Below, piece by piece: positions 9,394 to 64,000 of a stretch of 64,000 bases of DNA. Position 1 is the first letter of the stretch, and each line of letters begins with the position of its first letter. The translations under genes were made by a program, and so were the position numbers. Origin of the DNA: a virus; the IMG/VR virus record IMGVR_UViG_3300005680_000007, positions 1 through 64,000 of that record. One strand, given 5' to 3'. Under the pieces are notes generated by a model that did no database searches, was not told the DNA's origin, and was given only the letters and a program-made list of their open reading frames with translations.

Positions 9394-9409
9394 GGCAATT
9401 AATGCTCCC

Positions 9410-11938: not shown

Positions 11939-11939
11939 G

Positions 11940-18669: not shown

Positions 18670-18920
18670 CACCCCCCCTCATCCGCAAGGACAAGCTCCC
18701 GCTGGCGAGAGAGTTGGGCGTGGAAGACCGCGCTGCCGAGCGCGCAGCGGTCGAGGCCGGATATGGCGAGCTGCGCTCCTATGTCGAACGCAGTCTCCCG
18801 CACGCGGTGCCGATCAGCCATGACGTGTTCGCCTTCTATGACAAAATCGCGAAGCGGGAAGGCGGGAGTGTCGCGGCGGTCATCAACGATACCCTCCGCA
18901 AGGCGGCCGGGGTGGAATGA
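18666..18920 (+). CDS. hypothetical protein
   Basis: 84-aa ORF with ATGA overlaps on both sides. Confidence 0.45.
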   Translation: MTPPLIRKDKLPLARELGVEDRAAERAAVEAGYGELRSYVERSLPHAVPISHDVFAFYDKIAKREGGSVAAVINDTLRKAAGVE

Positions 18921-30480: not shown

Positions 30481-30514
30481 CGCATTGGCCAGTCCATTTC
30501 AAAATGTGCTGCGG

Positions 30515-46170: not shown

Positions 46171-47094
46171 ATGCCATCAACCTCGAACCGCGGCTATTCG
46201 GTCCCGGCGACCGGCACGCAAAGCGGCATCTGGGGGTCCGACGACCTCAACCCGAATTTCGAGAAAATCGATGACAATCTCGGCGCCACCGCGTCGGTGG
46301 TGCTGTCGTCATCGAACGTCATTCTGTCTGCCGCTGAATATAACTGCGGCACGATCATCCTGTCGGGCGCGCTGCTCGGCAACCTGACCGTGACCTGGCC
46401 GTCGGTTTCGGGCTGGTGGACCGTCTACAATCTCTGCACCGGCAACTTCTTCGTTCGCATTCAGTGCAGCGTGCCCGGCGCGAAAATCTGCCCGCCGCCG
46501 GGGCAATGCACCGACGTCTTCACCGACGGCACCAACATGTATTACCGAAGCCTGCCGCATAACATCGGCGGGTATTGGGACTATGCCGGGAGTTCCACCC
46601 CGCTCTGGGTCAGCAACTGCACCGTCCCGCCGTATCTTCTCTGCGACGGATCGACGTTCAGCGCCGTCACCTATCCCTATCTCAATACGATCCTCGGCGG
46701 CACGACATTGCCGGATCATCGCGGGCGCTCGCGCATCGCGCTCGATGGCGGCACCAACCGCGTCACCACCGCGGGCTCCGGAATCGACGGCGCAACCCGT
46801 TTCGCGGCCGGTGGCGCTCAGAACGTCACCCTTACCGAAGCGCAACTCGCAGCGCACGCGCACACGCTCACCACCAACGGCGCCCACACCCATACGGTAG
46901 GTCCGCTGCTGACAAGCAATCCGAACCAAGGTAGCGGTGGATCAATCACGGTCTATGTCCCGTCCGCCGGAACACTGACCTCGTCCTCGAACGGTGATCA
47001 CACGCATACGGTTGGGAGTACCGGAGGGGGCACGTCGCACAACAACATGCAGCCGACGGTGGTCGGTGGAATTGTGCTGATCCGAGCGGCTTGA
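46171..47094 (+). CDS. tail-collar-domain fibre protein
   Basis: PPYLLCDGSTFSAVTYPYLNTILGGTTLPDHRGRS (Phage_Tail_Collar pattern), followed by HxH-rich repeats. Confidence 0.65.
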   Translation: MPSTSNRGYSVPATGTQSGIWGSDDLNPNFEKIDDNLGATASVVLSSSNVILSAAEYNCGTIILSGALLGNLTVTWPSVSGWWTVYNLCTGNFFVRIQCSVPGAKICPPPGQCTDVFTDGTNMYYRSLPHNIGGYWDYAGSSTPLWVSNCTVPPYLLCDGSTFSAVTYPYLNTILGGTTLPDHRGRSRIALDGGTNRVTTAGSGIDGATRFAAGGAQNVTLTEAQLAAHAHTLTTNGAHTHTVGPLLTSNPNQGSGGSITVYVPSAGTLTSSSNGDHTHTVGSTGGGTSHNNMQPTVVGGIVLIRAA

Positions 47095-49126: not shown

Positions 49127-49462
49127 ATGTCTTCGCTGAGCGACATCTTCACGGCGTTGAACACCGCCAACAAGAACATCTCGGAACTGATCCGGACGCT
49201 GCAAAGCATCTTCCGCAATGCCGGGACCTTCACCTGGAATGGCGCTTCGGCAACCACCACGGTCGAGAATGCGGGGGTGCAGGCGACATCGCTTGTTCTC
49301 CTGATCCCGACCAATGCCGCGGCCGCCACGCTGATGGGCAGCAACGAATACCCGTATGTGTCGTCTCGCGTGGTCGGGACGAGCTTCACGCTCACGACCG
49401 CGGCGGGCACGGCTGCGGCGGGCACGGAAACCTTCGCGTACCTCCTCATCACGCCGGTATAG
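49127..49462 (+). CDS. hypothetical structural protein
   Basis: 111-aa ORF. Confidence 0.45.
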   Translation: MSSLSDIFTALNTANKNISELIRTLQSIFRNAGTFTWNGASATTTVENAGVQATSLVLLIPTNAAAATLMGSNEYPYVSSRVVGTSFTLTTAAGTAAAGTETFAYLLITPV

Positions 49463-49466
49463 CGCC

Positions 49467-50108
49467 ATGCCCCTGAAAAAATCTTCCAGCGATGCGGCGT
49501 TCAAGGCCAATCTGAAAGCCGAGCTTGCGGCGGGAAAGCCGCAGAAGCAGGCGTTGGCGATCGCCTATCGCGTCCAGCGCGACGCCAAGGCCAAAGGCAT
49601 GGCGCGCGGCGGCAAGGTCGGATACGCGCCGGGCGGCGGCATCCCGTTCTATCTCCGCGACCAGGCCCGGCAGACCGCGCGCCCGAGCGGCGGCATCATC
49701 GGCTCCGCGGTGCCGGGACGCAGCGACCGCATTCCACTGTCGCCGAAAGGCGGTTCCTATGTCATTCCCGCGGATGTTGTCAGCGCGATCGGGCAGGGCA
49801 ATACCGCCGCCGGCGCGCGCGGGCTCAGCCGCATGTTCAAGATCGGTGCCCCGCCCAAGGGCATGCCGAGGATGCCATCGACGCGAGTGCGGATGCCAAG
49901 CGCGAAGATGGCGGCCGGCGGCGCGACCGACGGCAACGTGGACATCATGGCGGCCGGCGGCGAATTCCTGGTGCCGCCAGAGAAGGTGGCCGAGATCGGC
50001 GGCGGCGATCTGGACCGGGGCCATAACATCCTCGACGACTTCGTCATGCAGGCGCGCAAGAAGGCGATCAAGACGCTGAAAGGGCTGCCGGGTCCGCGCC
50101 AGCGATGA
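49467..50108 (+). CDS. hypothetical virion-module protein
   Basis: ATG at 49467. 213 aa, Gly/Ala/Pro-rich. Confidence 0.45.
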   Translation: MPLKKSSSDAAFKANLKAELAAGKPQKQALAIAYRVQRDAKAKGMARGGKVGYAPGGGIPFYLRDQARQTARPSGGIIGSAVPGRSDRIPLSPKGGSYVIPADVVSAIGQGNTAAGARGLSRMFKIGAPPKGMPRMPSTRVRMPSAKMAAGGATDGNVDIMAAGGEFLVPPEKVAEIGGGDLDRGHNILDDFVMQARKKAIKTLKGLPGPRQR

Positions 50109-50639: not shown

Positions 50640-52961
50640 ATGGGATCATTGTGTAAAAGCGGTCCCGCGACCACCACGACGTCGACCAAGACCAAATCGG
50701 AGTCGGCCTATACGCCTTTCGCGCGCGACGAGATGCAGGACATCTACGGCCGCGTCTGGGAGGCTGGATCGACGCCATACACGCCGTTCACCGGCAATAT
50801 GGTCGCGGGGCTCAACCCGACGCAGCTTGGCGGCATCGACAAGATCACGGGCGCGACGAACTATCTCAACACCGCGGCGAATTACGCGCGCGAGGGCGCA
50901 GCGCCGATCTCGGATTGGGAGATCGAACGCTACATCAATCCGTTCACCAACAATGTCATCGACGCCACGCGGGCGAATTTCGCGGAGAACAATGCCCAGC
51001 AGCAGAGCCAGATCAGGGGCAATGCCGCGCTCCGTGGCGCGCTCGGCGGCGACCGGGCCGGCATTGCGCAGGCGGAAGCGGCGCGGCAGCAGAAACTGGC
51101 GCAAGACCCGATCATCGCCAAGATGCAGCAGGACAGCTACACGCAGGCGCTCGCGGCCGCGCAGGCCGACCGGGCCGCAAAGGCGCAAGGGGCTTATGGC
51201 TTCGGCGCGCTGCATTCCGGTGCGCTTGCCGGCGGCCAGTCTCAGATCGGGGCTGGCTCGCTCGAGCAGGGCGTGGATCAGGCAAGGCTCAATGCCCAGT
51301 ACCAGGAATTCATGCGCGCGCAGCAATACCCCTATCAGAATGCGCAATTCCTCGCGTCGGCCGGGCTGCCGCTCCTCACCGCGCAGGGCGGCACCCAGAC
51401 CGGCCAGAGCAGCGGCACCAGCACGCAGGTCCAGCAGGCGGCGCAGCCGAGCGTCTTGCAGCAGGCGGTTGGCCTCGGCACCGCGGCAATCGGCGCGTTC
51501 AGCGGCAACCCGTTCGCGTTCCTCGGCGGCCTGAACAGCGCCGCGGGCGGAATGCCATCGACCGGCGCGACCTACGGCGTCTCGCCAGGGTCTTCCGGCA
51601 TGGCATCGTTCGGCGGCGTGCCGTATCCGGTGTTCAACCGCGGCGGCCGCGTGCGTCCCGGCTACCGGAATGGCGGCTTCATCGACCGGGTCAACGAGCT
51701 CCGGCAGGCGATGCGCCGCGGCGGCGCGATCCGGCTTCCCGGCTATGCCGACGGCGGCGAAATTCCGTTCTGGGAGCGCTTCGCGCCGGCCGCGGAAGCC
51801 GTCCAGAGCGGCGAATTCGATCCGCAGGGGTCGAATTACCCGGCACCCATGGCAATGGCGCCAGAGGCCCCCGCTGAGTCTCCTGCGCTCGCCCGTGGGA
51901 TCACGCTTCCCCCGCAGATTGCCAGCCCGGGGGGCTCCGGCCCGATCATGGCTCCGGCCATGCGCCCGGCCATGCAGCCCGCGATCGCGCAGGCGCCAAT
52001 GGCGGCCGACGCACCGACCGATTTCTCCGCGCAGCGGGCATTCCCGCCGCGAGCCGCGCAGCCGGGCGGTGGCCTCTCCGAAGAAGCCCGCATGGCACTC
52101 ATCGCGGCCGGCCTCGGCATGATGGCCTCCAAGCATCCAAATGCGGCCGGCGCCATCGGCGAGGGCGGACTGATCGGCATCAAGCAATACACGAGCGGCA
52201 AGCAGACCAAAGAGAAGAACGAATTGGCGGCTCGCAAATTGCTGATGGATGCGGAGCAATTCGCCAAGACCCACGATTTGCGCGGCAAGACGCTGGACGA
52301 GACCAAGCGCTACCACGACATGACGATCCAGGAGCGCCGGGAGGCGGCTTCCGAGCGGTCGCAGGACCGCCGCGATGCGCTGGCCCGTCATGCTTTCCCT
52401 GGGACAGGGAAGGACGAGGACGGCAACGCCGTGCCGGGGATGTATCGCTACGACCCGGACAAGCAGGACTATGTGTTCAAGCCAGGCGCCGCGATCCAGA
52501 AGGGCGGCTCCGGTTCCGGACGGCCGCCGGCGGTGCTGCAGATCGCAGACGCGATGATCGCCGCGCGCGAAGAGGCCCGCAAGGCCAATCCGAGCCTTCC
52601 GCCGCTCAGCCGGGAGGAGGCGATCAAGTCGGCCCAGCGCGCCCCGCGCGACCGCGAGGACGTCACCACCCGCGAGCGGCTGGCCCAGAACCTCGCCAAG
52701 AACGACCCGAGTTTCACCATCGACAAGGCGCGCGAATTCTACGGCCTGCCGCCGCGCGTGATGCCGGACAAGAAGCCCGCCGAGAAGGGCCTGTGGGACC
52801 GCATGTTTGGCGGCGGGGACAAGAAGGCCGATGCGCCGAAGCTCAAGCCCATGACGCCCGAAGTCAGCGCCAAGGCGAAAGAAGCCATCGACGCCGGCAA
52901 GGACCGCAATGCCGTGATCCAGCGGCTGCGTGAAAACGGAATCGACCCGTCCGGACTGTGA
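50640..52961 (+). CDS. internal virion/ejection-type protein
   Basis: 773 aa, Gln/Ala/Gly-rich and low in complexity. It lies between the tail genes and the giant ORF. Confidence 0.45.
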   Translation: MGSLCKSGPATTTTSTKTKSESAYTPFARDEMQDIYGRVWEAGSTPYTPFTGNMVAGLNPTQLGGIDKITGATNYLNTAANYAREGAAPISDWEIERYINPFTNNVIDATRANFAENNAQQQSQIRGNAALRGALGGDRAGIAQAEAARQQKLAQDPIIAKMQQDSYTQALAAAQADRAAKAQGAYGFGALHSGALAGGQSQIGAGSLEQGVDQARLNAQYQEFMRAQQYPYQNAQFLASAGLPLLTAQGGTQTGQSSGTSTQVQQAAQPSVLQQAVGLGTAAIGAFSGNPFAFLGGLNSAAGGMPSTGATYGVSPGSSGMASFGGVPYPVFNRGGRVRPGYRNGGFIDRVNELRQAMRRGGAIRLPGYADGGEIPFWERFAPAAEAVQSGEFDPQGSNYPAPMAMAPEAPAESPALARGITLPPQIASPGGSGPIMAPAMRPAMQPAIAQAPMAADAPTDFSAQRAFPPRAAQPGGGLSEEARMALIAAGLGMMASKHPNAAGAIGEGGLIGIKQYTSGKQTKEKNELAARKLLMDAEQFAKTHDLRGKTLDETKRYHDMTIQERREAASERSQDRRDALARHAFPGTGKDEDGNAVPGMYRYDPDKQDYVFKPGAAIQKGGSGSGRPPAVLQIADAMIAAREEARKANPSLPPLSREEAIKSAQRAPRDREDVTTRERLAQNLAKNDPSFTIDKAREFYGLPPRVMPDKKPAEKGLWDRMFGGGDKKADAPKLKPMTPEVSAKAKEAIDAGKDRNAVIQRLRENGIDPSGL

Positions 52962-55900
52962 CCGACATCTCCTTCGACGACCTCCCGTCGGCAAAACCGG
53001 CGGATACCGGCCTTTCCTTCGACGACCTTCCTGCGGCCGCGCCCGCAGCGGAATCGGGCTATGTGCCGGAAGCGTTGAAGGGCTTCGCGCGCGGCGCGCA
53101 GGGCATGGTGACGTCGCCGCTGCAGGGTGTTGCGGCCGCGCAGTCGCAGGGCCCGGCGGCAATCGAACGCGCCGGACTTTCGGCCGCCATGGACCGCGTC
53201 ATGGCCGGCGAGGATCCCGCGCAGGCTGTGGAGAACGTGCGCGCGGCACCCCCGGCGCTGCCGCCGGTCACGGAAACGCCCGGCTGGCATGCCGCCGAGT
53301 CCTTCAAGAAAGCGACGGACCCGTATATCGCGCCCGCGAAAGGCTGGGAGGACAGCTGGACCGGCGATATAGCTGGCGGCTTTGGATCGGTCGCAGCCGG
53401 CATCGGCATGTCCATCCTCAATCCGGCCGCCGCCATGCTCGCGTTCGTCACGGCCGGCCAGGGCGAAGCGGCCGAACGCGCGGTGAAGGCTGGCGCTACG
53501 CCGGAGCAGATCCAGACCGCGGCCAGGCTCGGAACGGTCTCGGGCGCAACCGACGTGGTTGACGCGCTCCTGCCGATGATGGGCTCCTACGGCAAGACGC
53601 TCGGGCTCATCAAGCGGGTGGGCTATGGCGCTGTCTCCGGCGCGCTCGCGGAAGGCGGGCAGGAAGGCCTGCAGCAATTCATCCAGAACGCGATCGCGAA
53701 GGGCATCTACAAGCCCGACCAGGACTTGATGGAGGATGTGCCGCGCAGTGCGGCCATTGGCGCGATCGTCGGCGGGAGCATCGGCGGGTTCTCTGGCGGC
53801 GTGCAGAAGCCGGGGGCTGCGCCGGCAGCCGAGGCCCAGCAGTCCGCTGTGCAGCCAACTGCCGGGCAGCCCGCGGCCGACCCGCTCGAAGCCTTGATCG
53901 CGCGCGAAGCCGAGTCGCCGGCGCCGGACAATCCCGAACTCGACGCGCTCCTGTCCGATCTTGCCTCCCGCGCGACGGATTTCTCGGACCGCGCGCGCAG
54001 CGGTTCTCCGGTCGCTGCGCCTGCCCAGGCTGCCGAACCCGCCACCGAGCCGAGCGGGGCGCCGATCGATCCGATGTTCGCAGACCTGCCGGATGCGGAA
54101 GAAACCCCGCAGCGCGGCCCGAAAATCACCTATCTGACGCCGGATGCCATCCAGACCGACGCCGAGCGCTTCCAATATAAGGGTGGTGCCGACAAGGAAG
54201 GCGTCACCAGCGCGCTCAAGGACGTCAAGAAATGGGATGACCGTCTCGCCCCGCCTATTCTCGCGTGGGAGTCGGAAGACGGCAGCCTCTACGTCGTCAA
54301 CGGACACCAGCGCACGGCGCTCGCCAAGCGCGCCAGCGCCGCAGGTCAGCCGGACGTCTATGTCCCGGCCCGCATTATGCGTGAGGCTGACGGCTATACC
54401 CCCGAGTATATGCGCGCCCTCGGCGCCTTCCAGAACATCGCGGAGGGCACCGGGACGGCGCTCGATGCGGCGAAGGTGCTGCGCGCTAATTCGGCCGACC
54501 TCGCAGATGTGCTGCCGCCGCTGCCGCCGCGCAGCCAGCTTGTCCAGAACGCAAAGGGGCTGGCCGACCTGTCCGACGAGGCGTTCGGCATGGTGGTCAA
54601 CGACATCGTGCCGGAAGCCTACGCCGCGCAGGTTGGCAACATCCTGAAAGAGCCTGCCGAGCAGATGGCGGCGCTGGACGTTCTGGCGAAAGGCCAGCCC
54701 GCCAACGTCGACCAGGCGCGGATCATGGTCGAGGACATCCGCAACGCCGGATTCCTGAAAGGCGAACAAACCGGATTGTTCGGTGCCGAGGAATTTGCCC
54801 GCTCGCTTGTGCCCGAAAGGGCGCGTATACTGGACCGCGCCGTCAAGACGCTGCGCAAGCTCGGCTCCACGTTCAAGACCGCGGTGGAGCAGGAAGGCAC
54901 GCTGGCCGAGGCCGGCAACAAGCTCAAGCGCGCCGCCAACGAAAGGGCGCAGACCGAGAACGAAAGGCTCGCAGAGGTTCTTGCCAATGACGGGACGCGG
55001 AAAGGACCAATCTCCGATGCGCTTAGTGACGCCGCAAGAGCGCTCGCCGACGGCAAGCCCATCAATGCCGTCACGTCGCAATTCCTCTCCCAGGTTCGAT
55101 CTCTCACGCGAGGAACTCGTCCGGGCGTACAACGAAGCGCTGAGACTGACCGCGATGGACATGCGCGAGAACCGCAGCAGGCCGCGCTCTACTCGCTCGG
55201 ACGAGGACAGCAACGTCCTGTAGCGCCGAAAGTTCGCGCTGAAATCGAGGCCATGACGGCGCGCAATGCGCCGCTGGATGAAATCGTCGCGCACCCTGCC
55301 GTGTCCCGCGCCGTCGCGGAAATGCGCCGCCGCATCCCGACCGGTACACCGGAACAATTGCGCGATCCGGCATGGCAAGCGAAGCGCGTCTATGACTTCG
55401 GCGGCAAGCCGGTCAGAGGATTCGATGCTGCTGCTGATCGTCTGACGGAAAAGGCTCGTTCCTATGCGGGCGGCAAGGTGGAGAACGGGCGCCATGCCGT
55501 ACTCGTGCTTGGGCCTCCTGCGGCTGGCAAATCTACCTTCGCCAACCCGATCGCAAAGGCGATGGGCGCGGCCGTGGTCGACGCCGACGATGCCAAACTG
55601 GTCATACGCGAATATCAGGGCGGTGTCGGCACCGTCGCGGTTCATGAGGAAAGCTCTGCCCTGGCCGGTCGTGTGGCCTCGCGCCTGATCGGCGAGGGAG
55701 CCAATCTGGTTTTGCCGAAGGTGGGTGCCGCCGAGGCCAGCATCCGCAATCTGAAGAAGGCGCTGGAGGCCAAGGGCTACACGGTCGACGTCGCCCATGT
55801 GGCTGCAAATCCTGAGATTTCCGGCCGCCGGAACATTGGCCGCTGGCTCGAAACGGGACGCCTCGTCGACCCGGATTATATTCGGGAAGTGGGTGACAAG

Positions 55901-58900
55901 CCGCGGGAAGTCGCCTATATTCTGAGTAGAGAGGGTAATGACTATGTCGATGTCGATACCTCCCGAAGCCCCCCGAAAATCGAAGGAAAAGGCCCGCTCG
56001 CGAAGCTTCTCCGAGATCGAGGAGAGCGCGGAGAGCCTGTTTCTCGAGGAGATGGAGCGCAAGCCCTCTTCTCGCTCGGGCGACGGAAAGGCGTAACGGA
56101 TCAGGTCGATCTGTTCGGCGGCAGGGGAGACCAGTATGTCCTGCCGGGCGCCGAGAAGATCAGCGATGCCGAACTGGCGCAGCGGCGCGCGGATGCCCCG
56201 CTGCAGCCCAAGAAGCCGCAGAAGCCGGCCGAACTATTCTCGAACGACGATGCAAGCCAGCTAGGGCTTGGTCTGGAGCCGAAAGATGGACGCCGAGACG
56301 TTCGCCAGGGAGCACAAGGAGTATCTCCAAAACAACCGGCCGGACGTGCTCAAGGGCTTTCAGCGCGAAGGCGACCTGAGCAGGTATCTCTCTTCGATTG
56401 GGGAGCAGGCCGAAAGCCGGATGATCGACCTGCACGGCCAGATGAACAAGCAGGCGGGGGTGAACGACCTGCCGTACCTGCAGAAGGTGGCCGCGTTACA
56501 AAACCACCATCAATCGGCGCTCGAAATCGTCCGCGACGAAATCATCCTGCAGCCGCGGGACTAGCCGAGGCGATCAAGAAGATCGAGGAGCGTTCGCGCC
56601 TCAACTATCGCATCACCGATTCCGATCGCATCGGCGAAGGCGGACCCAAGCAGAAGGTCCGCGACAATATCGAAGCCGTTCGCGTCCTGCGCCAGATCGA
56701 GGAAGAAGGCCGCGGCCCGACTCCCGAGGAAAAGGCGAAGCTCGTCAAGTATGTCGGCTGGGGCGCGTTCGCGCAGGATGTGTTCGCACCCCACAAGCAG
56801 GATTGGAAGAAGGAACGCGATGCGCTCCGCTCGCTCCTGACCGACGCCGAATACGATTCCGCCAAAGCCTCGACCCTGAATGCCCACTACACGTCGCCGG
56901 AAGTCATCCGCGGCATGTGGGACGTGATGGATCATTTCGGGTTTTCGGGTGGCCTTGCGCTCGAGCCGTCGGCCGGCATCGGCCATTTCATCGGTCTCAC
57001 CCCCGACCACGTCGCGCCCAAGACGGCATGGACGGCGGTTGAACTCGACGCCATCACCGGACGCATCGCCGCCGCGCTCTATGGCGGCTCCGAGGTTCAC
57101 GTCGAAGGCTATCAGGATCTCAAGCGACCGTCGAATTACTACGACCTCGTCATCTCCAACGTGCCGTTTGGCGACTACAACATCACCGAAAAGCCCTACG
57201 GCCGCTATCCCATTCACGACTTCTTCTTCGTCAAGTCGCTGGACAAGGTGCGCCCGGGCGGCATCGTCGCGTTCATCACGTCCCGCTACACTATGGACCG
57301 CATGGATCCCGCGACGCGGCGCGAATTCGCGAAGCAGGCTGACCTCGTCGGCGCCATCCGTCTCCCGGGCGGCCGCAAGGGCGCGTTCGCCGGCAATGCC
57401 GGAACCGAAGTGACGACCGACATCATTTTCCTGCGCAAGAAGGTGCCGGACGAAAAGCCTTATCCGCAGAAGCCATGGCTAGAGACCAAGGAGATCAAGA
57501 CACCGGACGGCCCGGTCAAGATCAACGAGTATTTCGCCGCCAATCCACAAATGATGATGGGCGAAATGCGGCTGACCGGATCGATGTATTCGGACAAGGA
57601 GCCGGTGCTGGTCGGGACCGCGGAGGGATTGCGAGAGCGCATTGCTCAGGCCGCGCGCGACAACATGGAGGCCGGAGCATTCCTGCCGCGCGGCGTGCCG
57701 GAGCCGGTCAATATCGATAGTTCGGACGTCGATCCGACGCTGAAAGAAGGCGCGCTGTTCGTGAAGAACGGCAAGGTCTACCAGCGCCAGAATGGCGTTG
57801 GCGTCGAGCAGAAGCTTTCCCCCGACGACGTCGACCGCGTCAAGCGGCTGTCCGAGATGCGGGGCACGGTGAACGACTTGCTCGCGGCGCAGCTGGGCGC
57901 GAGCGACAAGGGCACGCCGGCGGACCTGCGCCGTTCGCTTGCCAAAACCTACGAGGCTTTCGTCAAGAAGTGGGGCCCGATCAATCTCGAGGAGCGGACG
58001 GTCACGTCCCGCGTCAACAAGGAAGGCGAAAACGTCGTCATTGTCCGCACGCCGAACCTGACCCCGTTCAAGGGCGATCCGGATGCATGGAAGGTCTCGG
58101 CGATCGAGAAATACGATCCAGAGACGGGCAAGGCGACGCCAGCCGCGATCCAGACCAAGAACGTGATCGAGGCACCGACCGAGCGCCAGATCAACGGGCC
58201 GGCCGATGCGCTGGCTGCGTCGCTAGACAAGCATGGTGCTGTGGACGTCTACGACATCGCGGACATGCTGGGCACGTCGGTCGAGGATGCCGTCAAGAGC
58301 CTGGGCGATACGGTGTTCGTCGATCCGGACGGCCGCCAGTATGTGACCGCCGATCAGTACCTTTCCGGCAATGTCGTGAAAAAGCTGGAAGAGGCGCGCG
58401 CGCTTGCGCAGGATGACGCCTCGTTCCAGCGCAACGTGGACGCCTTGGAGAAGGTGCAGCCCGTTCCGCTGGAGCCGTCCGACATCACCGCGCAATTCGG
58501 TGCCCCGTGGGTGCCGGAGCACGTCTATAACGATTTCATCAAGGATGTGCTGGGTGGTAGCGGGGAGGTCAAGAAGGTCCCGCTGACGGGCGAATGGCGC
58601 GTCACGATCAACGCAGCATCCCGAGATGCTCGCGCGAAGTATGCGACCGATCGCGTGCCGATCGACAAGATATTCAAGGCCGCGATCAACAACCAGCAGA
58701 TTACGGTGTGGGATCAGGTCGCGGACGACAAGCGGGAGGTCAACCAGAAAGAAACCGAAGCGGCCCGGATCAAGACCGAGGCGATGAAAGAAGCCTTCGC
58801 GGGCGATCCGAACCTCGGGATTGACGGATGGGTGTGGCAGGACGGGGCCCGCGCCGCCGAGCTCGCCGCCATCTACAACCGGACCTACAACAATCTCGTC

Positions 58901-61900
58901 CCCACCAATTTCGACGGCTCGCACCAGACGCTGCCCGGCCTCAACCGCATGTTCGCCGATCGCAAGCACCGGCTGGATGCTATCTGGCGCATGGTCACGA
59001 AGGGCAACACGCTGCTCGCCCATGTGGTCGGTTCCGGCAAGACCGTTACCATGATCGCCGGCGGCATGGAGATGAAGCGGCTGGGCCTGATCAACAAGCC
59101 CGCCTATGTGGTGCCGAACCACATGCTCGAGCAGTTCGCGCGGGAATTCATCGAAGCCTACCCGAATGCCAAGATCATCGTCGCCGAAAAGGACGAGATG
59201 ACGCGGGACAACCGCAAGGCCTTCTTGGCCAAGGTGGCGGCAAACGACTGGGACGGCGTCGTTATCACGCATGACGCCTTCGGCCGCATCAACATGGCGA
59301 AGGAATTCCGCCAGCAATTCATCCGCGACCAGATCGCCGAACTTGAGCGGGTGAAGACCGCGGAGGCGAAGGAGGCGGGCAAGGACTCGCCCACGGTCAA
59401 GGCGCTGGAAAAGGCCAAGAAGCGGCTGCAGGACAAACTGCAGAAGCTTTTGAACGAGGATCGCAAGGACGAGGGCACGTCGTTTGAGGAGAGCGGCGTC
59501 GACTTCCTGTTCGTCGACGAGGCGCACAAGTTCAAGAACCTCGCATTCGTGACGCGGCTGCAGCGGGTGAAGGGGCTTGCGCAGGGCGAGAGCCAGCGCG
59601 CCGAGGACCTGTCCCTGAAAATCCGCTACCTCGACCAGAAGCGCCCCGGCCGCTCGGCGGTTTTCGCAACCGGCACGCCGGTATCGAACACGATGGCCGA
59701 ACTCTGGACCATGCAACGCTACCTGCAATACGACAAACTGCGGGAGGCCGATCTTGACACGTTTGATGCATGGGCATCGACCTTCGGCAAGGTCGTCAAC
59801 AACATGGAATTGTCGGCGGACGGCCGCACCCTGAAAGAGGTTTCATCCTTCTCCCGCTTTGTGAACGTGCCGGAACTGGTCTCGCTCTATTCCGAGATTG
59901 CCGACACCAAGACCGCGGACATGCTCAACCTGCCGCGGCCGCAGGTGGTGGCGCCGGACGGCAAGCCCGGCATCGAGATTGTGAAGGTCTCGCCATCGGA
60001 AGCCGAAGAGCGCTACATTGAAGGCCTGGTGAAACTGGCCGAGGAATTGAAGGGCAAGCGGCCGGAGCCCGGCAAGCCCAATATGCTGAGCGTGGTCGGG
60101 CTGGGCCGCAAGGTCGCGACCGATGCGCGCCTTGTCGGTCTGCCCGTCAATGAGGGCGGCAAGATCGCCACGGCCGCGCGCAACATCTTCCAAATCTGGA
60201 AGGATGGCAAAGAGCCCGGCACCGTGCAGATGGTGTTCCTCGACATGGGCGTGCCGCAGACCAAGGCGAAGCCGAAAAAGGCGGACCCGGATGGCGACGT
60301 CACGATCACGGACACTCCGGACCCGATCTTCGCGAAATACAACGTCGATCTCTATGCTGACCTGAAAGCGCGCCTTGTCGCCATGGGCGTGCCGGCCAAG
60401 CAAATTGCCACGATCCACGAGGCGACCGACGACCAGAAGAAGGCCAAGCTGTTCTCGCGCGTGCGATCGGGCGATGTTCGCGTGATCATCGGCTCGTCGG
60501 AGAAGATGGGCGTCGGGACCAATGTGCAGGACCGGCTCATTGCGATGCACCATTTGGACGCGCCGTGGAAGCCCGCGGAAGTGGAGCAGCGCGACGGCCG
60601 CATCGTGCGCCAGGGCAACAAAAATCCGAACGTCCGCATCCTTCGCTATGTGACCGAGCGTTCGTTCGACGCATTCATGTGGCAGAAGCTGGACACAAAA
60701 TCGAAATTCATCGGGCAGGTGCTGTCCGGTGCAAAAGGCGCGCGTCACGCCGAGGACATTGACAATCCGCTGCCGGAAGCAGCGGAGATGAAGGCCGCGG
60801 CGTCTGGCGACCCGCGCATCATGGAGTTGGCCGAACTCGACCGGAAGGTCCGGCAACTGGCGGCGCAGAAGCGTGTGTTCGACGCATCCAAGGCCCGCGC
60901 GGTGTCCGAACTCGCCATGACCAAGGGCCGCGTCAAGCAGTATGAGGATGCGCTGCCGGCGGCCGAGATGGACGCGGCGAAGGTCGAAGATCTGTCGGGA
61001 GACAAGTTCAAGGTCACGATCCAGGGCAAGGAATACGACGACCGCCGCGAGGCCGGAAAGGTCATTCTCGATGCATTGCTCGCGCGCGATGCCCGTTCCT
61101 ATTATGCGCCGAAGCGGATCGACATCGGCACGGAAATGTCGGGCTTCCCGCTCGAAGTTGTGGCGCATGGCCGTTATGGGGACGGCGCGGCCTATCTGGC
61201 CGTGACGCCCGTGGTGCAGGCCAGCAAGAATTACAGCGGCTTGTCGGACATAACGATCAACGACCAGACAGATCCAGCCGGCCTCATGCTCAGGTTTGGC
61301 AATCTCCTCAAGAGCATCGCTCTGGAGCCGGACCGGATCGAGCGCGTGCTGAAAGAAGAGCGCGCAAACGTCCCGCGGCTGGAGAAGGTCGCGGGCGAAA
61401 CCTGGCCGAAGGATGCCGAACTGCAGCGCGCGCGCGCCGATCTGGACGCGCTGACCAAGGAATTGACCGGGGCGAAGGAGGAGAAGCCTGCGGAGGCGGC
61501 TCCTGCAACTGACGCGGTGGATACTGAAGGCTGGACGGCAGAGTCCCTCGTGGGACCGGATGCCGGGTTCACGCATTGGCAGATTAGGGACGCCGCCGGG
61601 AACCCAGTCACGAAAATCGTCGGTGGCACCGCAGAGTCCGCAATCCGAAAGGCAGCGGAGAAACCCGAGGCGCTGTTCGACATCTCGCGCGACCTGACAC
61701 GGCTCGCCCAGAAGGACCGCGGGGAGATCGAGCGCCGCATTACCGCAATCGCCCGGCAGGTCATGGGGGCGCATGTGAGGGTGGCGTTTCAGGACGCGAT
61801 TCCGCTGCCGGACGATGCTGTCGAAGCGTGGGGCGCGAAGGCCAAGGGCCTCTATACCGCCGCAGGACGGTATATCCCGGCGCATCGGCTGATCGACATC

Positions 61901-64000
61901 GCCATGGCTGACCCGATGTACCGGGATCAGGTCAGCACCGCCTATCACGAGCTTTTCCACGGCGCGGAAAACCTGCTGCTGCGTGACGCGGAAATGGCCG
62001 TGCTCAAGGCAGAGGACGCGGAGTTGCGGCAGATCGCGGCCGACTATACCGGGATGAGCCGTGCGGAAGCGGCTGAACTCGCGGGCTTCGAGGTCCGCGC
62101 GATCGCGGCGCAGGCCTATGCGGACATGCGCAACCAGCCGCGCTCGGTCGATCTCCTGTCCGGAGCGGCCCGCAAGGTGCTGGAAAAGCTGCGCCAGATG
62201 TTCAAGCGCATCCGCAACGTCATGCGCGGGCTGGGCTACCAGACGTCGCAGGACATCTTCTCGGACTTCTATGAAGGCCGCATGGCGGCGCGGGCTGCGA
62301 AGGAACGGCCGTTCGTGCGGGAAGCGGCGTCCGTCGTGCCCGGCGGTGGCACACCCACCCCGCAGCAGCGCCGCTCCGTCATGGAGCGCATGGACATGCG
62401 CCCGCTGGACCGGGCATTGCGGGTGCCCTTCGACGTGTTCGGCGGCACCAACCAGAAGGGCGAGTGGGACCCGGGCCTGCGCCTCTCCGAGAAGGCGGCG
62501 AAGATCATCAAGGACGCCAAGTTCTCGGGTGGCGGCAAATTCCACTGGCTCAATCCCACGCTGGAACGCGCGCGTGCCGGACTGATTGACCGATACGGTC
62601 TCGACCCCGCCTATGTCGAGCGGGAGCGCCAGCGGGCGCTGGACGAGCGCCGCATCATGGGCGTGGTCCCCGAAGTGATGCAGACATTGAAGGAGAACGA
62701 CGTCGGGTCCGCCGAAGCGATCGTTTTGCAGAAGATCCTGACTGGCGAGCAAATCTCCGACGCCAACCTCGAAGCGCTCGCCGCGCCGATCCGGCAGGCC
62801 ATTGATGTATTCGGGCAGGAGGCGGTCGACCTCGGCCTCCTCTCTCAGGAATCCTTCGACCGCAACAAGGGCGCCTATCTGCATCGCGTCTACCGCAAGC
62901 ACGAGACCGACCAGAACCCGCTGGTGAAGTGGGTCTCCCAGATGGCGTCGACCCGCCGCAAGAAGATCATCGGCAACCAGTTCAAGGGCCGGGGCCTCTG
63001 GAAGGAAGTCGCAGCGAGCACGGTCAACCAGGCACCGAAGGGCTCCAAGGTCTCGATCGGCGGCACGCAATGGGAAGTCCGCGGCTACAAGGGTAAGAAG
63101 GCCGTGCTCTGGCGCGACTATACGCCGGCAGAGCGCGAGCGCATGGGCGAAATCCTCGACGCCCGCTACACCATCGCCAAGACCTATATGGTCATGGCGC
63201 ACGATCTGGCGACCGGCCGCTTCTACAAGGACATCGCGGACAATCCGGAATGGTCGTCGGATCAGGAGCCAGCGTCCGGCGCGTGGAAGAATGCTGCGGA
63301 ATACGGCCGGCACTGGGCCGACCCCGACATCGAATGGGTCAAGGTCCCCGACACCAAGATCGCGTCCAGCAACACGCCCCGCTATGGAGCGCTTGCCGGC
63401 CGGTTCGTGCGCGCTGAAATCTGGCGCGACATAAACGAACTTGAGCAGATGCAGAGCCCGACATGGTGGAACACCATCCTCACGCAATGGAAGCTCAACA
63501 AGACCGCGCGCTCCCCCGTCACGCACATGAACAACGTCATGTCCAACGCCGTGTTGATGGACATGGCGGACGTGCGCGCTCGCGATCTCTACCGCGGCAT
63601 CCGCTCGATGGTGAAGCAGGACGCGCTCTACAAGGAGGCGGTGGACAACGGCGCCTTCGGCGGCGACATGATCAGCCAGGAAATCCGGGACAACGTACTC
63701 CGGCCGATCCTCGAGGAGATCGAGAACCAGGCGCAGGCCAAGTCCCCGGTCGGCATGGTAGAGAAGGTCATGGCCGGGCTGTTCTCCAAGGGCGCGCTGG
63801 TGGGCGCTGCCTATGGTGCTGCTGGCGGTGCGTTGGTCGGCGGGCCGGTCGGTGCGGTGGCCGGTGCGGGCGTCGGGGCCGTGGCCGGCGCGGCCGCGCG
63901 CAAGCCGATCGACAAGTTCGACGAGAAGATGCTGCAGGCCTACCGGCTCGAGGATGAAGTCTTCCGCATGGCGACCTATACGCGCCGGATCGACCAAGGC
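52958..64000 (+). CDS. giant polyvalent protein (ParB-like, P-loop kinase-like, N6-MTase, DEAH/SNF2 helicase, HExxH peptidase-like); 3' partial
   Basis: Frame 2 (start coordinate mod 3 = 2) has no stop from the GTGA overlap at 52958 to nt 64000. The track lists no closed frame-2 ORF in this span. Hand translation is protein-like except for three short stretches (see findings). Confidence 0.7.
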   Translation, partial: MTDISFDDLPSAKPADTGLSFDDLPAAAPAAESGYVPEALKGFARGAQGMVTSPLQGVAAAQSQGPAAIERAGLSAAMDRVMAGEDPAQAVENVRAAPPALPPVTETPGWHAAESFKKATDPYIAPAKGWEDSWTGDIAGGFGSVAAGIGMSILNPAAAMLAFVTAGQGEAAERAVKAGATPEQIQTAARLGTVSGATDVVDALLPMMGSYGKTLGLIKRVGYGAVSGALAEGGQEGLQQFIQNAIAKGIYKPDQDLMEDVPRSAAIGAIVGGSIGGFSGGVQKPGAAPAAEAQQSAVQPTAGQPAADPLEALIAREAESPAPDNPELDALLSDLASRATDFSDRARSGSPVAAPAQAAEPATEPSGAPIDPMFADLPDAEETPQRGPKITYLTPDAIQTDAERFQYKGGADKEGVTSALKDVKKWDDRLAPPILAWESEDGSLYVVNGHQRTALAKRASAAGQPDVYVPARIMREADGYTPEYMRALGAFQNIAEGTGTALDAAKVLRANSADLADVLPPLPPRSQLVQNAKGLADLSDEAFGMVVNDIVPEAYAAQVGNILKEPAEQMAALDVLAKGQPANVDQARIMVEDIRNAGFLKGEQTGLFGAEEFARSLVPERARILDRAVKTLRKLGSTFKTAVEQEGTLAEAGNKLKRAANERAQTENERLAEVLANDGTRKGPISDALSDAARALADGKPINAVTSQFLSQVRSLTRGTRPGVQRSAETDRDGHAREPQQAALYSLGRGQQRPVAPKVRAEIEAMTARNAPLDEIVAHPAVSRAVAEMRRRIPTGTPEQLRDPAWQAKRVYDFGGKPVRGFDAAADRLTEKARSYAGGKVENGRHAVLVLGPPAAGKSTFANPIAKAMGAAVVDADDAKLVIREYQGGVGTVAVHEESSALAGRVASRLIGEGANLVLPKVGAAEASIRNLKKALEAKGYTVDVAHVAANPEISGRRNIGRWLETGRLVDPDYIREVGDKPREVAYILSREGNDYVDVDTSRSPPKIEGKGPLAKLLRDRGERGEPVSRGDGAQALFSLGRRKGVTDQVDLFGGRGDQYVLPGAEKISDAELAQRRADAPLQPKKPQKPAELFSNDDASQLGLGLEPKDGRRDVRQGAQGVSPKQPAGRAQGLSARRRPEQVSLFDWGAGRKPDDRPARPDEQAGGGERPAVPAEGGRVTKPPSIGARNRPRRNHPAAAGLAEAIKKIEERSRLNYRITDSDRIGEGGPKQKVRDNIEAVRVLRQIEEEGRGPTPEEKAKLVKYVGWGAFAQDVFAPHKQDWKKERDALRSLLTDAEYDSAKASTLNAHYTSPEVIRGMWDVMDHFGFSGGLALEPSAGIGHFIGLTPDHVAPKTAWTAVELDAITGRIAAALYGGSEVHVEGYQDLKRPSNYYDLVISNVPFGDYNITEKPYGRYPIHDFFFVKSLDKVRPGGIVAFITSRYTMDRMDPATRREFAKQADLVGAIRLPGGRKGAFAGNAGTEVTTDIIFLRKKVPDEKPYPQKPWLETKEIKTPDGPVKINEYFAANPQMMMGEMRLTGSMYSDKEPVLVGTAEGLRERIAQAARDNMEAGAFLPRGVPEPVNIDSSDVDPTLKEGALFVKNGKVYQRQNGVGVEQKLSPDDVDRVKRLSEMRGTVNDLLAAQLGASDKGTPADLRRSLAKTYEAFVKKWGPINLEERTVTSRVNKEGENVVIVRTPNLTPFKGDPDAWKVSAIEKYDPETGKATPAAIQTKNVIEAPTERQINGPADALAASLDKHGAVDVYDIADMLGTSVEDAVKSLGDTVFVDPDGRQYVTADQYLSGNVVKKLEEARALAQDDASFQRNVDALEKVQPVPLEPSDITAQFGAPWVPEHVYNDFIKDVLGGSGEVKKVPLTGEWRVTINAASRDARAKYATDRVPIDKIFKAAINNQQITVWDQVADDKREVNQKETEAARIKTEAMKEAFAGDPNLGIDGWVWQDGARAAELAAIYNRTYNNLVPTNFDGSHQTLPGLNRMFADRKHRLDAIWRMVTKGNTLLAHVVGSGKTVTMIAGGMEMKRLGLINKPAYVVPNHMLEQFAREFIEAYPNAKIIVAEKDEMTRDNRKAFLAKVAANDWDGVVITHDAFGRINMAKEFRQQFIRDQIAELERVKTAEAKEAGKDSPTVKALEKAKKRLQDKLQKLLNEDRKDEGTSFEESGVDFLFVDEAHKFKNLAFVTRLQRVKGLAQGESQRAEDLSLKIRYLDQKRPGRSAVFATGTPVSNTMAELWTMQRYLQYDKLREADLDTFDAWASTFGKVVNNMELSADGRTLKEVSSFSRFVNVPELVSLYSEIADTKTADMLNLPRPQVVAPDGKPGIEIVKVSPSEAEERYIEGLVKLAEELKGKRPEPGKPNMLSVVGLGRKVATDARLVGLPVNEGGKIATAARNIFQIWKDGKEPGTVQMVFLDMGVPQTKAKPKKADPDGDVTITDTPDPIFAKYNVDLYADLKARLVAMGVPAKQIATIHEATDDQKKAKLFSRVRSGDVRVIIGSSEKMGVGTNVQDRLIAMHHLDAPWKPAEVEQRDGRIVRQGNKNPNVRILRYVTERSFDAFMWQKLDTKSKFIGQVLSGAKGARHAEDIDNPLPEAAEMKAAASGDPRIMELAELDRKVRQLAAQKRVFDASKARAVSELAMTKGRVKQYEDALPAAEMDAAKVEDLSGDKFKVTIQGKEYDDRREAGKVILDALLARDARSYYAPKRIDIGTEMSGFPLEVVAHGRYGDGAAYLAVTPVVQASKNYSGLSDITINDQTDPAGLMLRFGNLLKSIALEPDRIERVLKEERANVPRLEKVAGETWPKDAELQRARADLDALTKELTGAKEEKPAEAAPATDAVDTEGWTAESLVGPDAGFTHWQIRDAAGNPVTKIVGGTAESAIRKAAEKPEALFDISRDLTRLAQKDRGEIERRITAIARQVMGAHVRVAFQDAIPLPDDAVEAWGAKAKGLYTAAGRYIPAHRLIDIAMADPMYRDQVSTAYHELFHGAENLLLRDAEMAVLKAEDAELRQIAADYTGMSRAEAAELAGFEVRAIAAQAYADMRNQPRSVDLLSGAARKVLEKLRQMFKRIRNVMRGLGYQTSQDIFSDFYEGRMAARAAKERPFVREAASVVPGGGTPTPQQRRSVMERMDMRPLDRALRVPFDVFGGTNQKGEWDPGLRLSEKAAKIIKDAKFSGGGKFHWLNPTLERARAGLIDRYGLDPAYVERERQRALDERRIMGVVPEVMQTLKENDVGSAEAIVLQKILTGEQISDANLEALAAPIRQAIDVFGQEAVDLGLLSQESFDRNKGAYLHRVYRKHETDQNPLVKWVSQMASTRRKKIIGNQFKGRGLWKEVAASTVNQAPKGSKVSIGGTQWEVRGYKGKKAVLWRDYTPAERERMGEILDARYTIAKTYMVMAHDLATGRFYKDIADNPEWSSDQEPASGAWKNAAEYGRHWADPDIEWVKVPDTKIASSNTPRYGALAGRFVRAEIWRDINELEQMQSPTWWNTILTQWKLNKTARSPVTHMNNVMSNAVLMDMADVRARDLYRGIRSMVKQDALYKEAVDNGAFGGDMISQEIRDNVLRPILEEIENQAQAKSPVGMVEKVMAGLFSKGALVGAAYGAAGGALVGGPVGAVAGAGVGAVAGAAARKPIDKFDEKMLQAYRLEDEVFRMATYTRRIDQG
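54119..54420 (+). other. ParB/Srx-like N-terminal nuclease domain of the giant ORF
   Basis: KITYLTPDAIQTDAERFQYKGG...ILAWESEDGSLYVVNGHQRTALAKRA. Confidence 0.6.
55065..55223 (+). CDS. +1-frame island 1 nested in the giant ORF (52 codons from ATG; coding signal from about 55095)
   Basis: Frame 0. Reads ...FDLSREELVRAYNEALRLTAMDMRENRSRPRSTRSDEDSNVL* (TAG 55221-55223). Hand-counted third-position G+C is 24/27 here against 14/27 in frame 2. Confidence 0.35.
   Translation: MPSRRNSSPRFDLSREELVRAYNEALRLTAMDMRENRSRPRSTRSDEDSNVL
55480..55900 (+). other. P-loop kinase-like (zeta-toxin/AAA_33-like) domain of the giant ORF
   Basis: GRHAVLVLGPPAAGKSTFANPIAKAMGAAVVDADDAKLV. Confidence 0.45.
55938..56096 (+). 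CDS. +1-frame island 2 nested in the giant ORF (50-52 codons)
   Basis: Frame 0. GAGG at 55931-55934, ATGs at 55938, 55944 and 55950. Reads ...SFSEIEESAESLFLEEMERKPSSRSGDGKA* (TAA 56094-56096). Third-position G+C is 35/44 against 24/46 in frame 2. Confidence 0.35.
   Translation: MTMSMSIPPEAPRKSKEKARSRSFSEIEESAESLFLEEMERKPSSRSGDGKA
56286..56564 (+). CDS. +1-frame island 3: TnpV-like ORF nested in the giant ORF
   Basis: Frame 0. GGAG at 56275-56278, 7 nt before the ATG. Reads MDAETFAREHKEYLQNNRPDVLKGFQREGDLSRYLSSIGEQAE...NDLPYLQKVAALQNHHQSALEIVRDEIILQPRD*. It resembles TnpV. Third-position G+C is very high, whereas frame 2 is Arg/Pro/Gly-rich. Confidence 0.55.
   Translation: MDAETFAREHKEYLQNNRPDVLKGFQREGDLSRYLSSIGEQAESRMIDLHGQMNKQAGVNDLPYLQKVAALQNHHQSALEIVRDEIILQPRD
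56565..57450 (+). other. gamma-class N6-adenine DNA methyltransferase domain of the giant ORF
   Basis: NYRITDSD...YVGWGAF..., motif I LEPSAGIGHF, motif IV ISNVPFG, and IVAFITS. Confidence 0.75.
58950..60700 (+). other. DEAH/SNF2-type helicase domain of the giant ORF
   Basis: AHVVGSGKTVTM (Walker A), FVDEAHKFKN, ATGTPVSNTMAELW, VIIGSSEKMGVGTNVQ, QRDGRIVRQGN. Confidence 0.75.
61946..61960 (+). other. HExxH zinc-metallopeptidase-like motif in the giant ORF
   Basis: STAYHELFHGAEN, in frame 2. Confidence 0.45.

Follow-up and report, generated by a model that had tools for sequence, protein, structure and literature searches.

The right-hand end of a 64,000-nucleotide stretch of viral DNA (IMG/VR record IMGVR_UViG_3300005680_000007, positions 1 to 64,000; hereafter the window) is occupied by a single reading frame of at least 3,681 codons, which we call the giant and which is the subject of this analysis. 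The frame is continuous and coding, and we read it, with a probability of about 0.8, as a single genuine late gene from a temperate, Bcep22-like podophage, encoding a polyvalent protein of approximately 3,985 residues. Inside it, in the +1 frame, lies a second and much smaller gene of the TnpV family that is very probably functional. Taken by itself, the giant would be a further example of a known strategy, in which a multi-enzyme 'first-strike' protein is loaded into the capsid and injected with the DNA. What is new is the conserved, overlapping, nested TnpV-like gene in a much-annotated class of phage genes and, beside it, the lack of cysteine in these giants and an unnamed C-terminal module shared by a very large protein family.

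Translation of positions 52958 to 64000 in frame 2 gives 3,681 codons with zero stops; the remaining five frames of the same segment carry 8 to 127 stops each, and from base composition the chance probability of such a run is about 2e-45. This bears out the sequence-only reading of the window, which had proposed a stop-free frame from a GTGA overlap to the window edge, and all of the motifs quoted in that reading are present in the translation (ISFDDLP, LSFDDLP, VVNGHQRT, GPPAAGKST, LEPSAGIGHF, NVPFG, GSGKT, DEAH, YHELFH and a glycine zipper). The GTG of the giant, at 52958, overlaps the TGA of the preceding 773-residue gene as GTGA, and a homologue, P0056, starts at the same site, with the N-terminus MSDISFDDLP. 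Along most of its length the frame has a G+C content at third codon positions (GC3) of 0.77-0.88, the level to be expected of genes in a genome of 63% G+C, and this marks the giant as coding; the two exceptions are residues 600-1100 (0.56-0.69) and residues 1101-1200 (0.33, with 0.85 at first codon positions, GC1). The frame is absent from the program-made list of open reading frames (ORFs) because it runs off the window, and the list does contain the two antisense shadows that had been pointed out earlier, of 1,107 residues (52739-56062) and 1,384 residues (59843-63997), both on the minus strand.

Shadow ORFs of this kind, in high-G+C DNA, can push a true gene out of annotation. One example is the record of Pseudomonas phage Itty13 (L123, NC_070969, 3046-9482), in which three coding sequences (CDSs) labelled 'hypothetical protein' are annotated antisense to a DarB-like giant gene: shadow ORFs have been annotated there instead of the real gene, an artefact of the same sort as in the ORF list of the window.

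The end of the giant is deduced from P0056 and from the locus that encodes it (L130), since the window end matched no contig or protein fragment: an exact 66-nucleotide pattern from it had zero matches in the genome contigs and viral contigs searched, and no fragment in the protein database was identical to the C-terminal part of the giant. P0056 (3,924 residues, found on six contigs) is 72.5% identical to the giant across residues 1-3681, has its modules in the same order and extends 303 residues further, so that a length of about 3,985 residues is predicted for the window protein; C-terminal relatives run some 300-320 residues past the motif at the window edge (YRLEDEVFRMATY). At the nucleotide level, a megablast search of the 11-kb stretch against phages and plasmids returned zero matches.

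The second of the two exceptions in codon composition is accounted for by the nested gene: GC1 and GC3 take the values given above at residues 1101-1200 because a second gene lies there in the +1 frame. Its product passes the Pfam model for TnpV (PF14198) with 44.8 bits against a cut-off of 27, and its counterpart at a related locus, L005, with 40.9. The linker read in frame 0 (residues 1109-1203) is the out-of-frame reading of this gene, which had been missed in the first reading of the window. The nested protein of the window shares 76% identity with its counterpart in L130, with 15, 13 and 26 substitutions at codon positions 1, 2 and 3, respectively. Synonymous and non-synonymous codon changes number 16 and 22 when counted in the TnpV frame and 4 and 35 when counted in frame 0. 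Selection therefore preserves the TnpV protein, and all that it preserves of frame 0 is that it stays open. On this comparison the nested gene is under purifying selection.

The arrangement recurs widely. We collected 113 loci encoding a DarB-type LPD36-methyltransferase (MTase), 66 on viral contigs and 47 on contigs of bacterial genomes, representing several phyla, and searched them for TnpV-like ORFs with a hidden Markov model built from the loci themselves. Such an ORF is found directly upstream in 100 of the 113, and in the +1 frame in 94-95 of these 100. In 92 of 94 loci no stop interrupts the MTase frame anywhere along the TnpV domain, as compared to 11 of 94 expected from resampling of synonymous codons; an empirical null drawn from same-length, same-frame windows of the downstream coding region gives a similar picture (10.9 of 90 expected, 88 observed), and so do the lineages that remain after dereplication at 50% TnpV identity (47 of 49 open, 5.9 expected). 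Of 92 nested ORFs, 78 have ATG as their start codon and 61 are preceded by a Shine-Dalgarno (SD)-like motif of at least 4 nucleotides; they have the composition of a helical globular protein, whereas the frame-0 reading of the same DNA is 20% glycine, 12% alanine, 10% arginine and 10% proline. The Pfam TnpV model alone recognises 45 of 75 of them (E ≤ 0.01). Phages with the nested ORF within the giant CDS include JC1, Gerry, Pavtok, PEp14, Stean, SopranoGao, LASTA, Itty13, Atu_ph08, VvAW1, POI1126 and Mwe-JY07, and in none of the records of these cultured phages that were inspected is it an annotated feature. In JC1 it occupies positions 2106-2525 of locus L119, or about 49,219-49,638 of OM283127. 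The darB gene of phage P7 has no nested TnpV ORF. A tblastn search with the window TnpV peptide gave no phage match and one weak plasmid match, and a word-index search returned the query alone. DarB and TnpV are not mentioned together in the literature searched, which did not cover the founding paper on Bcep22, and neither the nested TnpV gene nor the lack of cysteine was found mentioned in the sections drawn on here of the study of polyvalent proteins by Iyer, Burroughs, Anand, de Souza and Aravind (2017, PMC5512222).

Some loci break the rule, and all of these are on contigs of metagenome-assembled genomes (MAGs): frame 0 is closed in L074 and L112, TnpV is in the +2 frame in L105 and L107, and it is in the same frame as the MTase in L114. 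These may be pseudogenes, assembly errors or real variants.

A constant +1 relation between TnpV and DarB (94-95 of the 100 loci) could also result from programmed recoding at the junction, by which a short form ending in TnpV and a long form running on into DarB would be produced, in resemblance to the tail chaperones G/GT or to dnaX, with TnpV never being a free protein. One locus speaks for this. In Sinorhizobium phage PBC5 (L134, AF448724; 752-7309), orf33 (2,185 residues) has a C-terminal TnpV domain in frame, and the DarB frame (locus position 6733 onward) overlaps the last 574 nucleotides of orf33; the family phrog_938 ('endolysin') holds this PBC5-type fusion, which is why nested ORFs match its C-terminal end. 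However, in the window the +1 frame is closed by a TAG (56261-56263) only 8 codons ahead of the TnpV ATG, the nested ORFs mostly have their own ATG and SD-like motif (as counted above), the window and L005 have no slippery heptamer in common, and the TnpV stop falls anywhere from -104 to +133 nucleotides relative to LPD36. In PBC5, sequenced in 2002, a 1-nucleotide error would look alike, and the TnpV part of orf33 keeps its own AGGAGG and ATG. We consider recoding improbable.

Marginally less probable still is that the giant represents two proteins, one with the N-module, the ParB-like domain and the Zeta kinase and another with the DarB core, the HExxH module and the C-module, split by the tnpV-like gene, frame 0 being open incidentally or by assembly error. 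The codon-position signal at residues 1101-1200 does belong to the +1 frame, a gene caller run on the short contig of an independent assembly (Logan, SRR2082602) called tnpV and a downstream ORF, and the upstream part in PBC5 ends with TnpV in frame. A relative with split modules also exists: L001 (ENA ERZ25039531 contig_139866, 5476-13672) has two adjacent genes, one of 1,450 residues with the N-module, a DdrB-ParB domain and Zeta, and one of 1,223 residues with HExxH, the junction motif described below and the C-module; it has no DarB cassette, and a GH25 lysozyme gene is next. As the modules are here divided between two genes, the single chain is one of several arrangements, and the window gene looks like the two L001 genes fused by insertion of a tnpV-DarB cassette. 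Against two proteins in the window itself, frame 0 is stop-free and offers no start codon (ATG, GTG or TTG) from the end of tnpV up to the start of LPD36, the same frame is open at nearly all of the 94 loci and in 47 of the 49 lineages as opposed to the small numbers expected, and P0056 is the same single ORF on each of its six contigs. A sequencing indel as the origin of the two-frame junction was considered and is unlikely, because the Logan assembly is 100% identical and gap-free in the part of the window that it covers, 56122-59233 only, and because the arrangement recurs in 92 loci.

With the single frame and its nested gene as the preferred reading, the question turns to what the nested protein may do. 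It is proposed as a partner of the MTase-helicase because its gene travels with the DarB cassette, and not with the Zeta kinase or the C-module. In phage P1, DarB needs two helpers for protection against EcoB and EcoK, a small one, Ulx, and DdrB, which is a ParB-peptidase protein; the authors of the JC1 study report that homologues of the P1 DarB partners were not found in the Lessieviruses (PMC9144972). The general proposal, to which we would give even odds, is that an obligatory but unrecognised second gene belongs to the DarB-like MTase-helicase cassettes of phages and integrated elements, encoding a TnpV-family protein of about 75-130 residues in the +1 frame of the linker before LPD36 and dual-coding across lineages of the Alphaproteobacteria, Gammaproteobacteria, Burkholderiales, Verrucomicrobia, Deltaproteobacteria and cyanophages; this would be the missing small partner of DarB, functionally like P1 Ulx, and its nesting would let the accessory gene move with a cassette that is shuffled in frame between giant genes. 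That the nested protein of the window is itself a DarB co-factor we put forward tentatively, at something between a fair suspicion and an even bet, and it represents a concrete candidate for such a factor in Bcep22-like phages, testable in the cultured ones.

Two related ideas were rejected. Ulx is not a TnpV homologue: its P7 equivalent, OlxA, has no Pfam TnpV match, and as Ulx/OlxA are not TnpV-like, any equivalence with TnpV would be functional only. Neither is TnpV a general neighbour of DarB: while the nested ORF passes the gathering score of the family defined on the Tn4451-type transposons of Firmicutes, the one canonical Firmicutes copy examined is a stand-alone gene without a DarB-like neighbour. 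As a layout, the closest known parallel is Rz/Rz1 of phage lambda, in which the Rz1 gene is embedded entirely in Rz, shifted to the +1 frame, and the Rz and Rz1 proteins join in a single complex. Similarly, the small gene here has its own start and is wholly contained, in the +1 frame, within a larger one, and this layout is kept across many phages. The lambda pair, however, has a spanin function, whereas in the giant the host frame at the overlap is a low-complexity linker, and an interaction between the giant and the TnpV-like protein is only proposed.

Turning to the enzymatic content of the giant, it contains a Zeta-type kinase and a DarB-type LPD36-MTase-SNF2 dyad whose catalytic motifs are intact, in agreement with the P-loop kinase, N6-adenine MTase and DEAH/SNF2 helicase named by the sequence-only reading. 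The kinase matches the Zeta_toxin family (PF06414) with 52.7 bits against a cut-off of 22.3 (E 4.9e-14). The MTase matches phrog_11801 ('DNA methyltransferase') at E 7e-201, with LEPSAGIGHF and SNVPFG kept in L005, its motif IV being N-V-P-F and not N-P-P-F. C-terminal to it, the helicase motifs GSGKT and VDEAH are present in the translation, and three Pfam models exceed their cut-offs: SNF2-rel_dom (29.6 against 24.9), ResIII (26.6 against 22.5) and Helicase_C (25.9 against 23.5). Just before the MTase is an LPD36-type helical segment (NYRITDSD..GEGGPK, NYRITDSDRIGEGGPKQK) that is conserved in L005; it lies within the match to phrog_10089 ('DarB-like antirestriction'; 1,650 bits over residues 1123-2855), and the Pfam LPD36 model itself gave no match in the Pfam scans of the giant. 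The DarB core is 36% identical, over 1,685 residues, to residues 1498-3108 of JC1 gp69, and the MTase part of the giant has matches in 125 deposited phage records.

The region of reduced GC3 (0.56-0.69 at window positions 54750-56250, residues 600-1100, as against about 0.8 elsewhere) covers the Zeta-type kinase, which suggests that the kinase module may be a more recent gain from a source of lower G+C.

Two further domains fared less well. For the proposed ParB-like domain, a conserved domain is there, 42% identical to part of the 3,912-residue giant of Ruegeria phage 45A6 and matching phrog_10691 (1e-61) and phrog_21 (4e-21), and so is the DGHQR-type motif, with a match to phrog_1033 ('ParB-like') at E 1e-3 over 45 residues. 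No family model supports the name, as residues 396-716 gave no Pfam match even at E ≤ 10, no profile match in the PDB and no hhalign match to the DdrB-ParB domain of L001. Likewise, the YHELFH motif claimed as HExxH exists, its H, E and H are invariant in six relatives, and the module around it is 40% identical to residues 254-563 of P0013, yet peptidase family models gave zero matches (Pfam, PDB profiles), the PDB profile search finding IrrE-type matches only, all non-significant. In the giant as a whole, no RNA polymerase (RNAP) family and no SLT or lysozyme family was matched among the models of Pfam, PHROGs and NCBIfam. The earlier characterisation as a polyvalent, DarB-like MTase-helicase giant nevertheless stands, with the kinase, the N6-MTase, the SNF2 helicase and the glycine zipper in one stop-free frame. 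The combination had also been called unusually rich, which goes too far. Each module is a listed building block of polyvalent proteins: PMC5512222 names an MTase-helicase dyad with LPD36, a ParB-type domain, a zeta-like kinase and a zincin peptidase, the last being common but not universal. The architecture is, moreover, repeated in P0056.

The two ends of the giant are of a different nature. The N-module is shared with the N-terminus of the 1,450-residue protein of L001 (35% identity) and with that of the Ruegeria 45A6 giant, and 26 of 148 family representatives have it at their N-terminus. By hhalign, the N-module aligns with residues 325-441 of N4 gp50 (probability 84%, E 7.5e-6), and it matches phrog_2206 ('virion RNA polymerase') at E 3.4e-6. 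The profile of the C-module hits 5,408 clusters at E ≤ 1e-3 and 1,456 at E ≤ 1e-30, and in nearly all of the top matches the module forms the extreme C-terminus of a protein of 2,000-5,900 residues. Its glycine-zipper stretch, as claimed, is found at residues 3611-3652 (63788-63913; Gly-zipper_Omp, 26.9 bits against 25); beyond it, no match was found in Pfam, NCBIfam, PHROGs or the PDB sequences. The NCBIfam search gave nothing useful for the N-module, the C-module or 'PLxRFG', and the Pfam LPD models had zero matches to the C-module in the proteins scanned. LPD37, considered as a part of the C-module, was rejected, being a separate cargo domain in P0013. For the AlphaFold2 model of the C-module, a version from 14 sequences was too poor (predicted local distance difference test, pLDDT, 54), and the version from 41 sequences was used, which is mainly helical (pLDDT 75; predicted template-modelling score 0.71). 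No solved structure in the PDB has a similar fold. In BFVD, the model resembles the C-terminal portions of viral polyvalent proteins whose cargo is different (Zeta toxin, ART-PolyVal, LT_GEWL, LPD38) and, more weakly, C-terminal chunks of N4-like virion RNA polymerases and of a Pelagibacter phage internal virion protein.

Conserved N- and C-modules bracket a variable cargo across thousands of relatives. Among the 148 representatives, at single-sequence sensitivity, the DarB dyad is found in 16, the ParB-like domain in 15, the Zeta kinase in 6 and HExxH in 35. A conserved junction motif containing QYVLPGAEKISDAELAQRR precedes module boundaries in P0005, P0006, P0007 and P0013 and is present in 33 of the 148, its consensus in relatives being DLFGG..Q[YF]V[IL]PGAEKI[ST]D.ELA.R...KPQK...LPLF; it is a candidate for an HExxH processing site or for a recombination joint in cassette exchange. 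The N-module and a C-module of about 870 residues define a chassis with interchangeable cargo, a second new element of this analysis, in more than 5,000 clusters from mostly uncultured phages; in cultured phages, the C-module family is almost absent, with 4 Helicobacter prophage records only.

Another property of the giant is the lack of cysteine. It has 0 in 3,681 residues, while the sixteen other genes of the window encode 59 in 7,235 (0.8%), and against these neighbouring genes the probability of zero is about 8e-14. In the 161 proteins of the family (P0001-P0161) there are 99 cysteines in 474,027 residues, with 138 of the 161 containing none. Cysteine-free giants also include JC1 gp69 (L126; 0/4,515), that of Ruegeria phage 45A6 (L003; 0/3,912), PBC5 orf33 (0/2,185) and N4 gp50 (L129; 0/3,500). 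The lack of cysteine may reflect a need to pass unfolded through the tail and an oxidising periplasm, and, as it is near-total and includes the virion RNAP of N4, it presents a simple sequence mark that could help to recognise ejected virion proteins.

Together with this property, the virion proteomics of JC1/Bcep22 and the N4-like N-module suggest, by analogy, that the giant is probably packaged and ejected with the DNA. In Bcep22-like podophages, 'a massive DarB-like protein' follows the fibre and head-closure genes and precedes the lysis genes, and in JC1 this protein, gp69 (4,515 residues), was detected in CsCl-purified virions by 51 unique peptides (PMC9144972). P1 DarB is described as an internal head protein that is co-ejected with DNA and protects in cis against type I restriction-modification, and N4 gp50 as packaged and delivered into the host (both in the sections of PMC5512222 drawn on). 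The least probable alternative, that of a non-virion protein acting in the cytoplasm or expressed from the prophage (in superinfection exclusion, in self-methylation of progeny, or as a captured host-side defence), can point to polyvalent proteins captured by host genomes (noted in the same sections of PMC5512222), to the 47 related loci on bacterial MAG contigs, some megabase-sized, to a weak match of the SNF2 part to DISARM DrmD and other defence helicases and to the separate stand-alone MTase of the window, but the defence-model scores are 39-46 bits with cut-offs of 610-1,100, the giant is on the strand of the late virion genes and coupled to them by GTGA, JC1 gp69 was found in virions, and the lack of cysteine is family-wide and shared with the ejected N4 enzyme.

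In the model that we favour for the single, packaged giant, the protein would be made late and loaded into the capsid, then threaded, cysteine-free and unfolded, through the tail and the periplasm along with the DNA, like the N4 virion RNAP. Once in the cell, the DarB-like MTase-helicase would translocate on the entering DNA and methylate or shield it in cis against type I-like restriction, following the model of Iyer et al., and the Zeta-type kinase would act on a cell-wall precursor or a nucleotide sugar, easing entry. The HExxH module may process the giant into separate working units, with the DLFGG..PGAEKISD junction motif as a possible cleavage site, and the glycine-zipper C-module with the hydrophobic N-module may mediate capsid loading or membrane passage. 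The nested TnpV-like protein would be produced by internal initiation at its own SD and ATG and would serve as the small partner of the DarB module.

The closest known proteins are the giants of the Bcep22-like phages (Bcep22 gp75, JC1 gp69, the 3,764-residue protein of Parlo, Pavtok gp27, and those of Ralstonia phage Gerry and Ochrobactrum phage POI1126, gp30). Like the window gene, their genes close the virion module and are followed by small reverse genes and the lysis genes (the downstream part being known via L130). They share with the window protein the LPD36-MTase-SNF2 core, the size class, the absence of cysteine and the nested +1 TnpV-like ORF. They differ in having no BLAST-level similarity to it outside the core, the window protein possessing a Zeta kinase, a ParB-like domain and N- and C-modules, and no lytic transglycosylase domain. 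The DarB proteins of P1 and P7 have the dyad of MTase and superfamily 2 helicase, with 29% identity in the MTase, and, among their partners Ulx, DdrB, DarA and Hdf, Ulx and DdrB (a ParB-peptidase) find possible counterparts in the nested protein, the ParB-like domain and the HExxH module of the window. P1 DarB is, however, a separate protein of a myophage, of about 2,255 residues, the ParB-like domain of the window does not match DdrB-ParB, and P7 differs both in its darB, as already said, and in its OlxA/Ulx. The polyvalent proteins of Iyer et al. similarly unite many unrelated enzymatic domains in one polypeptide encoded beside virion genes, but, in the sections drawn on, the phage versions are anchored mainly on MuF, N4 RNAP or named LPDs. 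Like the window protein, N4 gp50 (3,500 residues) is a cysteine-free giant at the distal end of the virion module, with an N-terminal domain that aligns with the N-module; unlike N4 gp50, the window protein has no RNAP domain, and N4 belongs to the Schitoviridae, with a different layout.

Several points weigh against the reading of the giant as a single, packaged and ejected protein with a DarB co-factor nested in it. The stop codon of the giant is outside the window, and the two-gene split of L001 means that a single chain is not obligatory. Packaging and ejection of the window protein are predicted by analogy, and what the giant shares with JC1 gp69, which is proven in virions, is the DarB core and neither the N- nor the C-module; the lytic transglycosylase domain of the giants of Bcep22, DC1 and Pavtok is missing from it. 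The link of the C-module with the N4 virion RNAP is weak (Foldseek E 5e-3, template-modelling score 0.22, profile not significant), and the ParB-like and HExxH assignments have no family-level match. The upstream modules of PBC5 in the TnpV frame reflect either the sequence error or the recoding discussed above. Finally, the Ulx/OlxA of P7 is unrelated to TnpV.

The source of the window is probably a Bcep22-like temperate podophage, with a high-G+C, alphaproteobacterial host. The genes upstream of the giant (Table 1) are in the Bcep22/JC1 order, and the place at the distal end of a podovirus-like virion module that had been claimed for the giant is confirmed by the portal, capsid, fibre and ejection-like genes upstream of it, on the same strand, and by the GTGA overlap. 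Further to the left, the window encodes RecT, an exonuclease, a DnaB-type helicase, a DNA methyltransferase and a PAPS reductase.

Table 1. Positions of the giant, its modules, the nested gene and other features in the window (nucleotides of the window; residues are those of the giant).
Feature	Nucleotides	Strand	Residues	Remarks
PAPS reductase	2784-3929	-		moron shared with JC1; phrog_424, E 3e-50
Stand-alone DNA methyltransferase	18917-20173	+		phrog_67, E 3e-67
Large terminase (TerL)	27215-28837	+		
SU10-type portal	30464-32944	+		
Capsid protein	36855-37769	+		
Tail-fibre proteins	41526-44012 and 46171-47094	+		
677-residue 'virion structural/head closure' protein		+		upstream of the giant
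Acetyltransferase-like protein		+		upstream of the giant
773-residue gene, putative internal/ejection protein	50640..52961	+		weak matches to phrog_7477 and phrog_4287 'DNA ejection protein'
Giant polyvalent ORF	52958..64000	+	1-3681	3,681 codons, cut off by the window edge; about 3,985 residues predicted in full
N-module	52958..53857	+	1-300	two [IL]SFDDLP repeats; Gly/Ala-rich hydrophobic segments
[IL]SFDDLP repeats	52967-52987 and 53012-53032	+		
Gly/Ala-rich hydrophobic segment (example)	53387-53458	+	144-167	
Conserved domain with VVNGHQR motif	54143..55105	+	396-716	ParB/Srx-like by motif only
Zeta-toxin-type P-loop kinase	55493..55894	+	846-979	Walker A GPPAAGKST intact
Conserved junction motif	56087..56281	+	1044-1108	DLFGG..QYVLPGAEKISDAELAQRR..KPQKPAELF..LGLGLEP
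GGAG, Shine-Dalgarno-like motif	56275..56278	+		7 nucleotides upstream of the nested ATG (56286)
Frame-0 linker	56282..56569	+	1109-1204	Gly/Arg/Pro/Ala-rich; GC3 0.23-0.40
Nested TnpV-family gene	56286..56564	+		92 codons and TAG (56562-56564); +1 frame relative to the giant
DarB-like core	56570..61522	+	1205-2855	LPD36-type N-terminal helices, N6-adenine MTase, SNF2-type helicase
SNF2-type helicase	58997-60937	+	2014-2660	GSGKT, DEAH
HExxH module	61664..62347	+	2903-3130	predicted zincin-type metallopeptidase; H2997-E-L-F-H3001 at 61946-61960
C-module	62399..64000	+	3148-3681 (of about 870 residues)	LRVPFDVFGG motif, glycine zipper

The locus of P0056 (L130) allows the surroundings of the giant to be followed further. 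Directly before the giant it has a gene for an 841-residue protein with a Hydrolase_2 domain (3476-6001), of SleB type, and the 773-residue counterpart in the window has no Pfam match. Peptidoglycan cutting, a function located inside the giant in Bcep22-like phages, may here sit in this separate upstream protein. Downstream of the giant, L130 has a 93-residue reverse gene, followed by CHAP, Amidase_2 and lysozyme genes.

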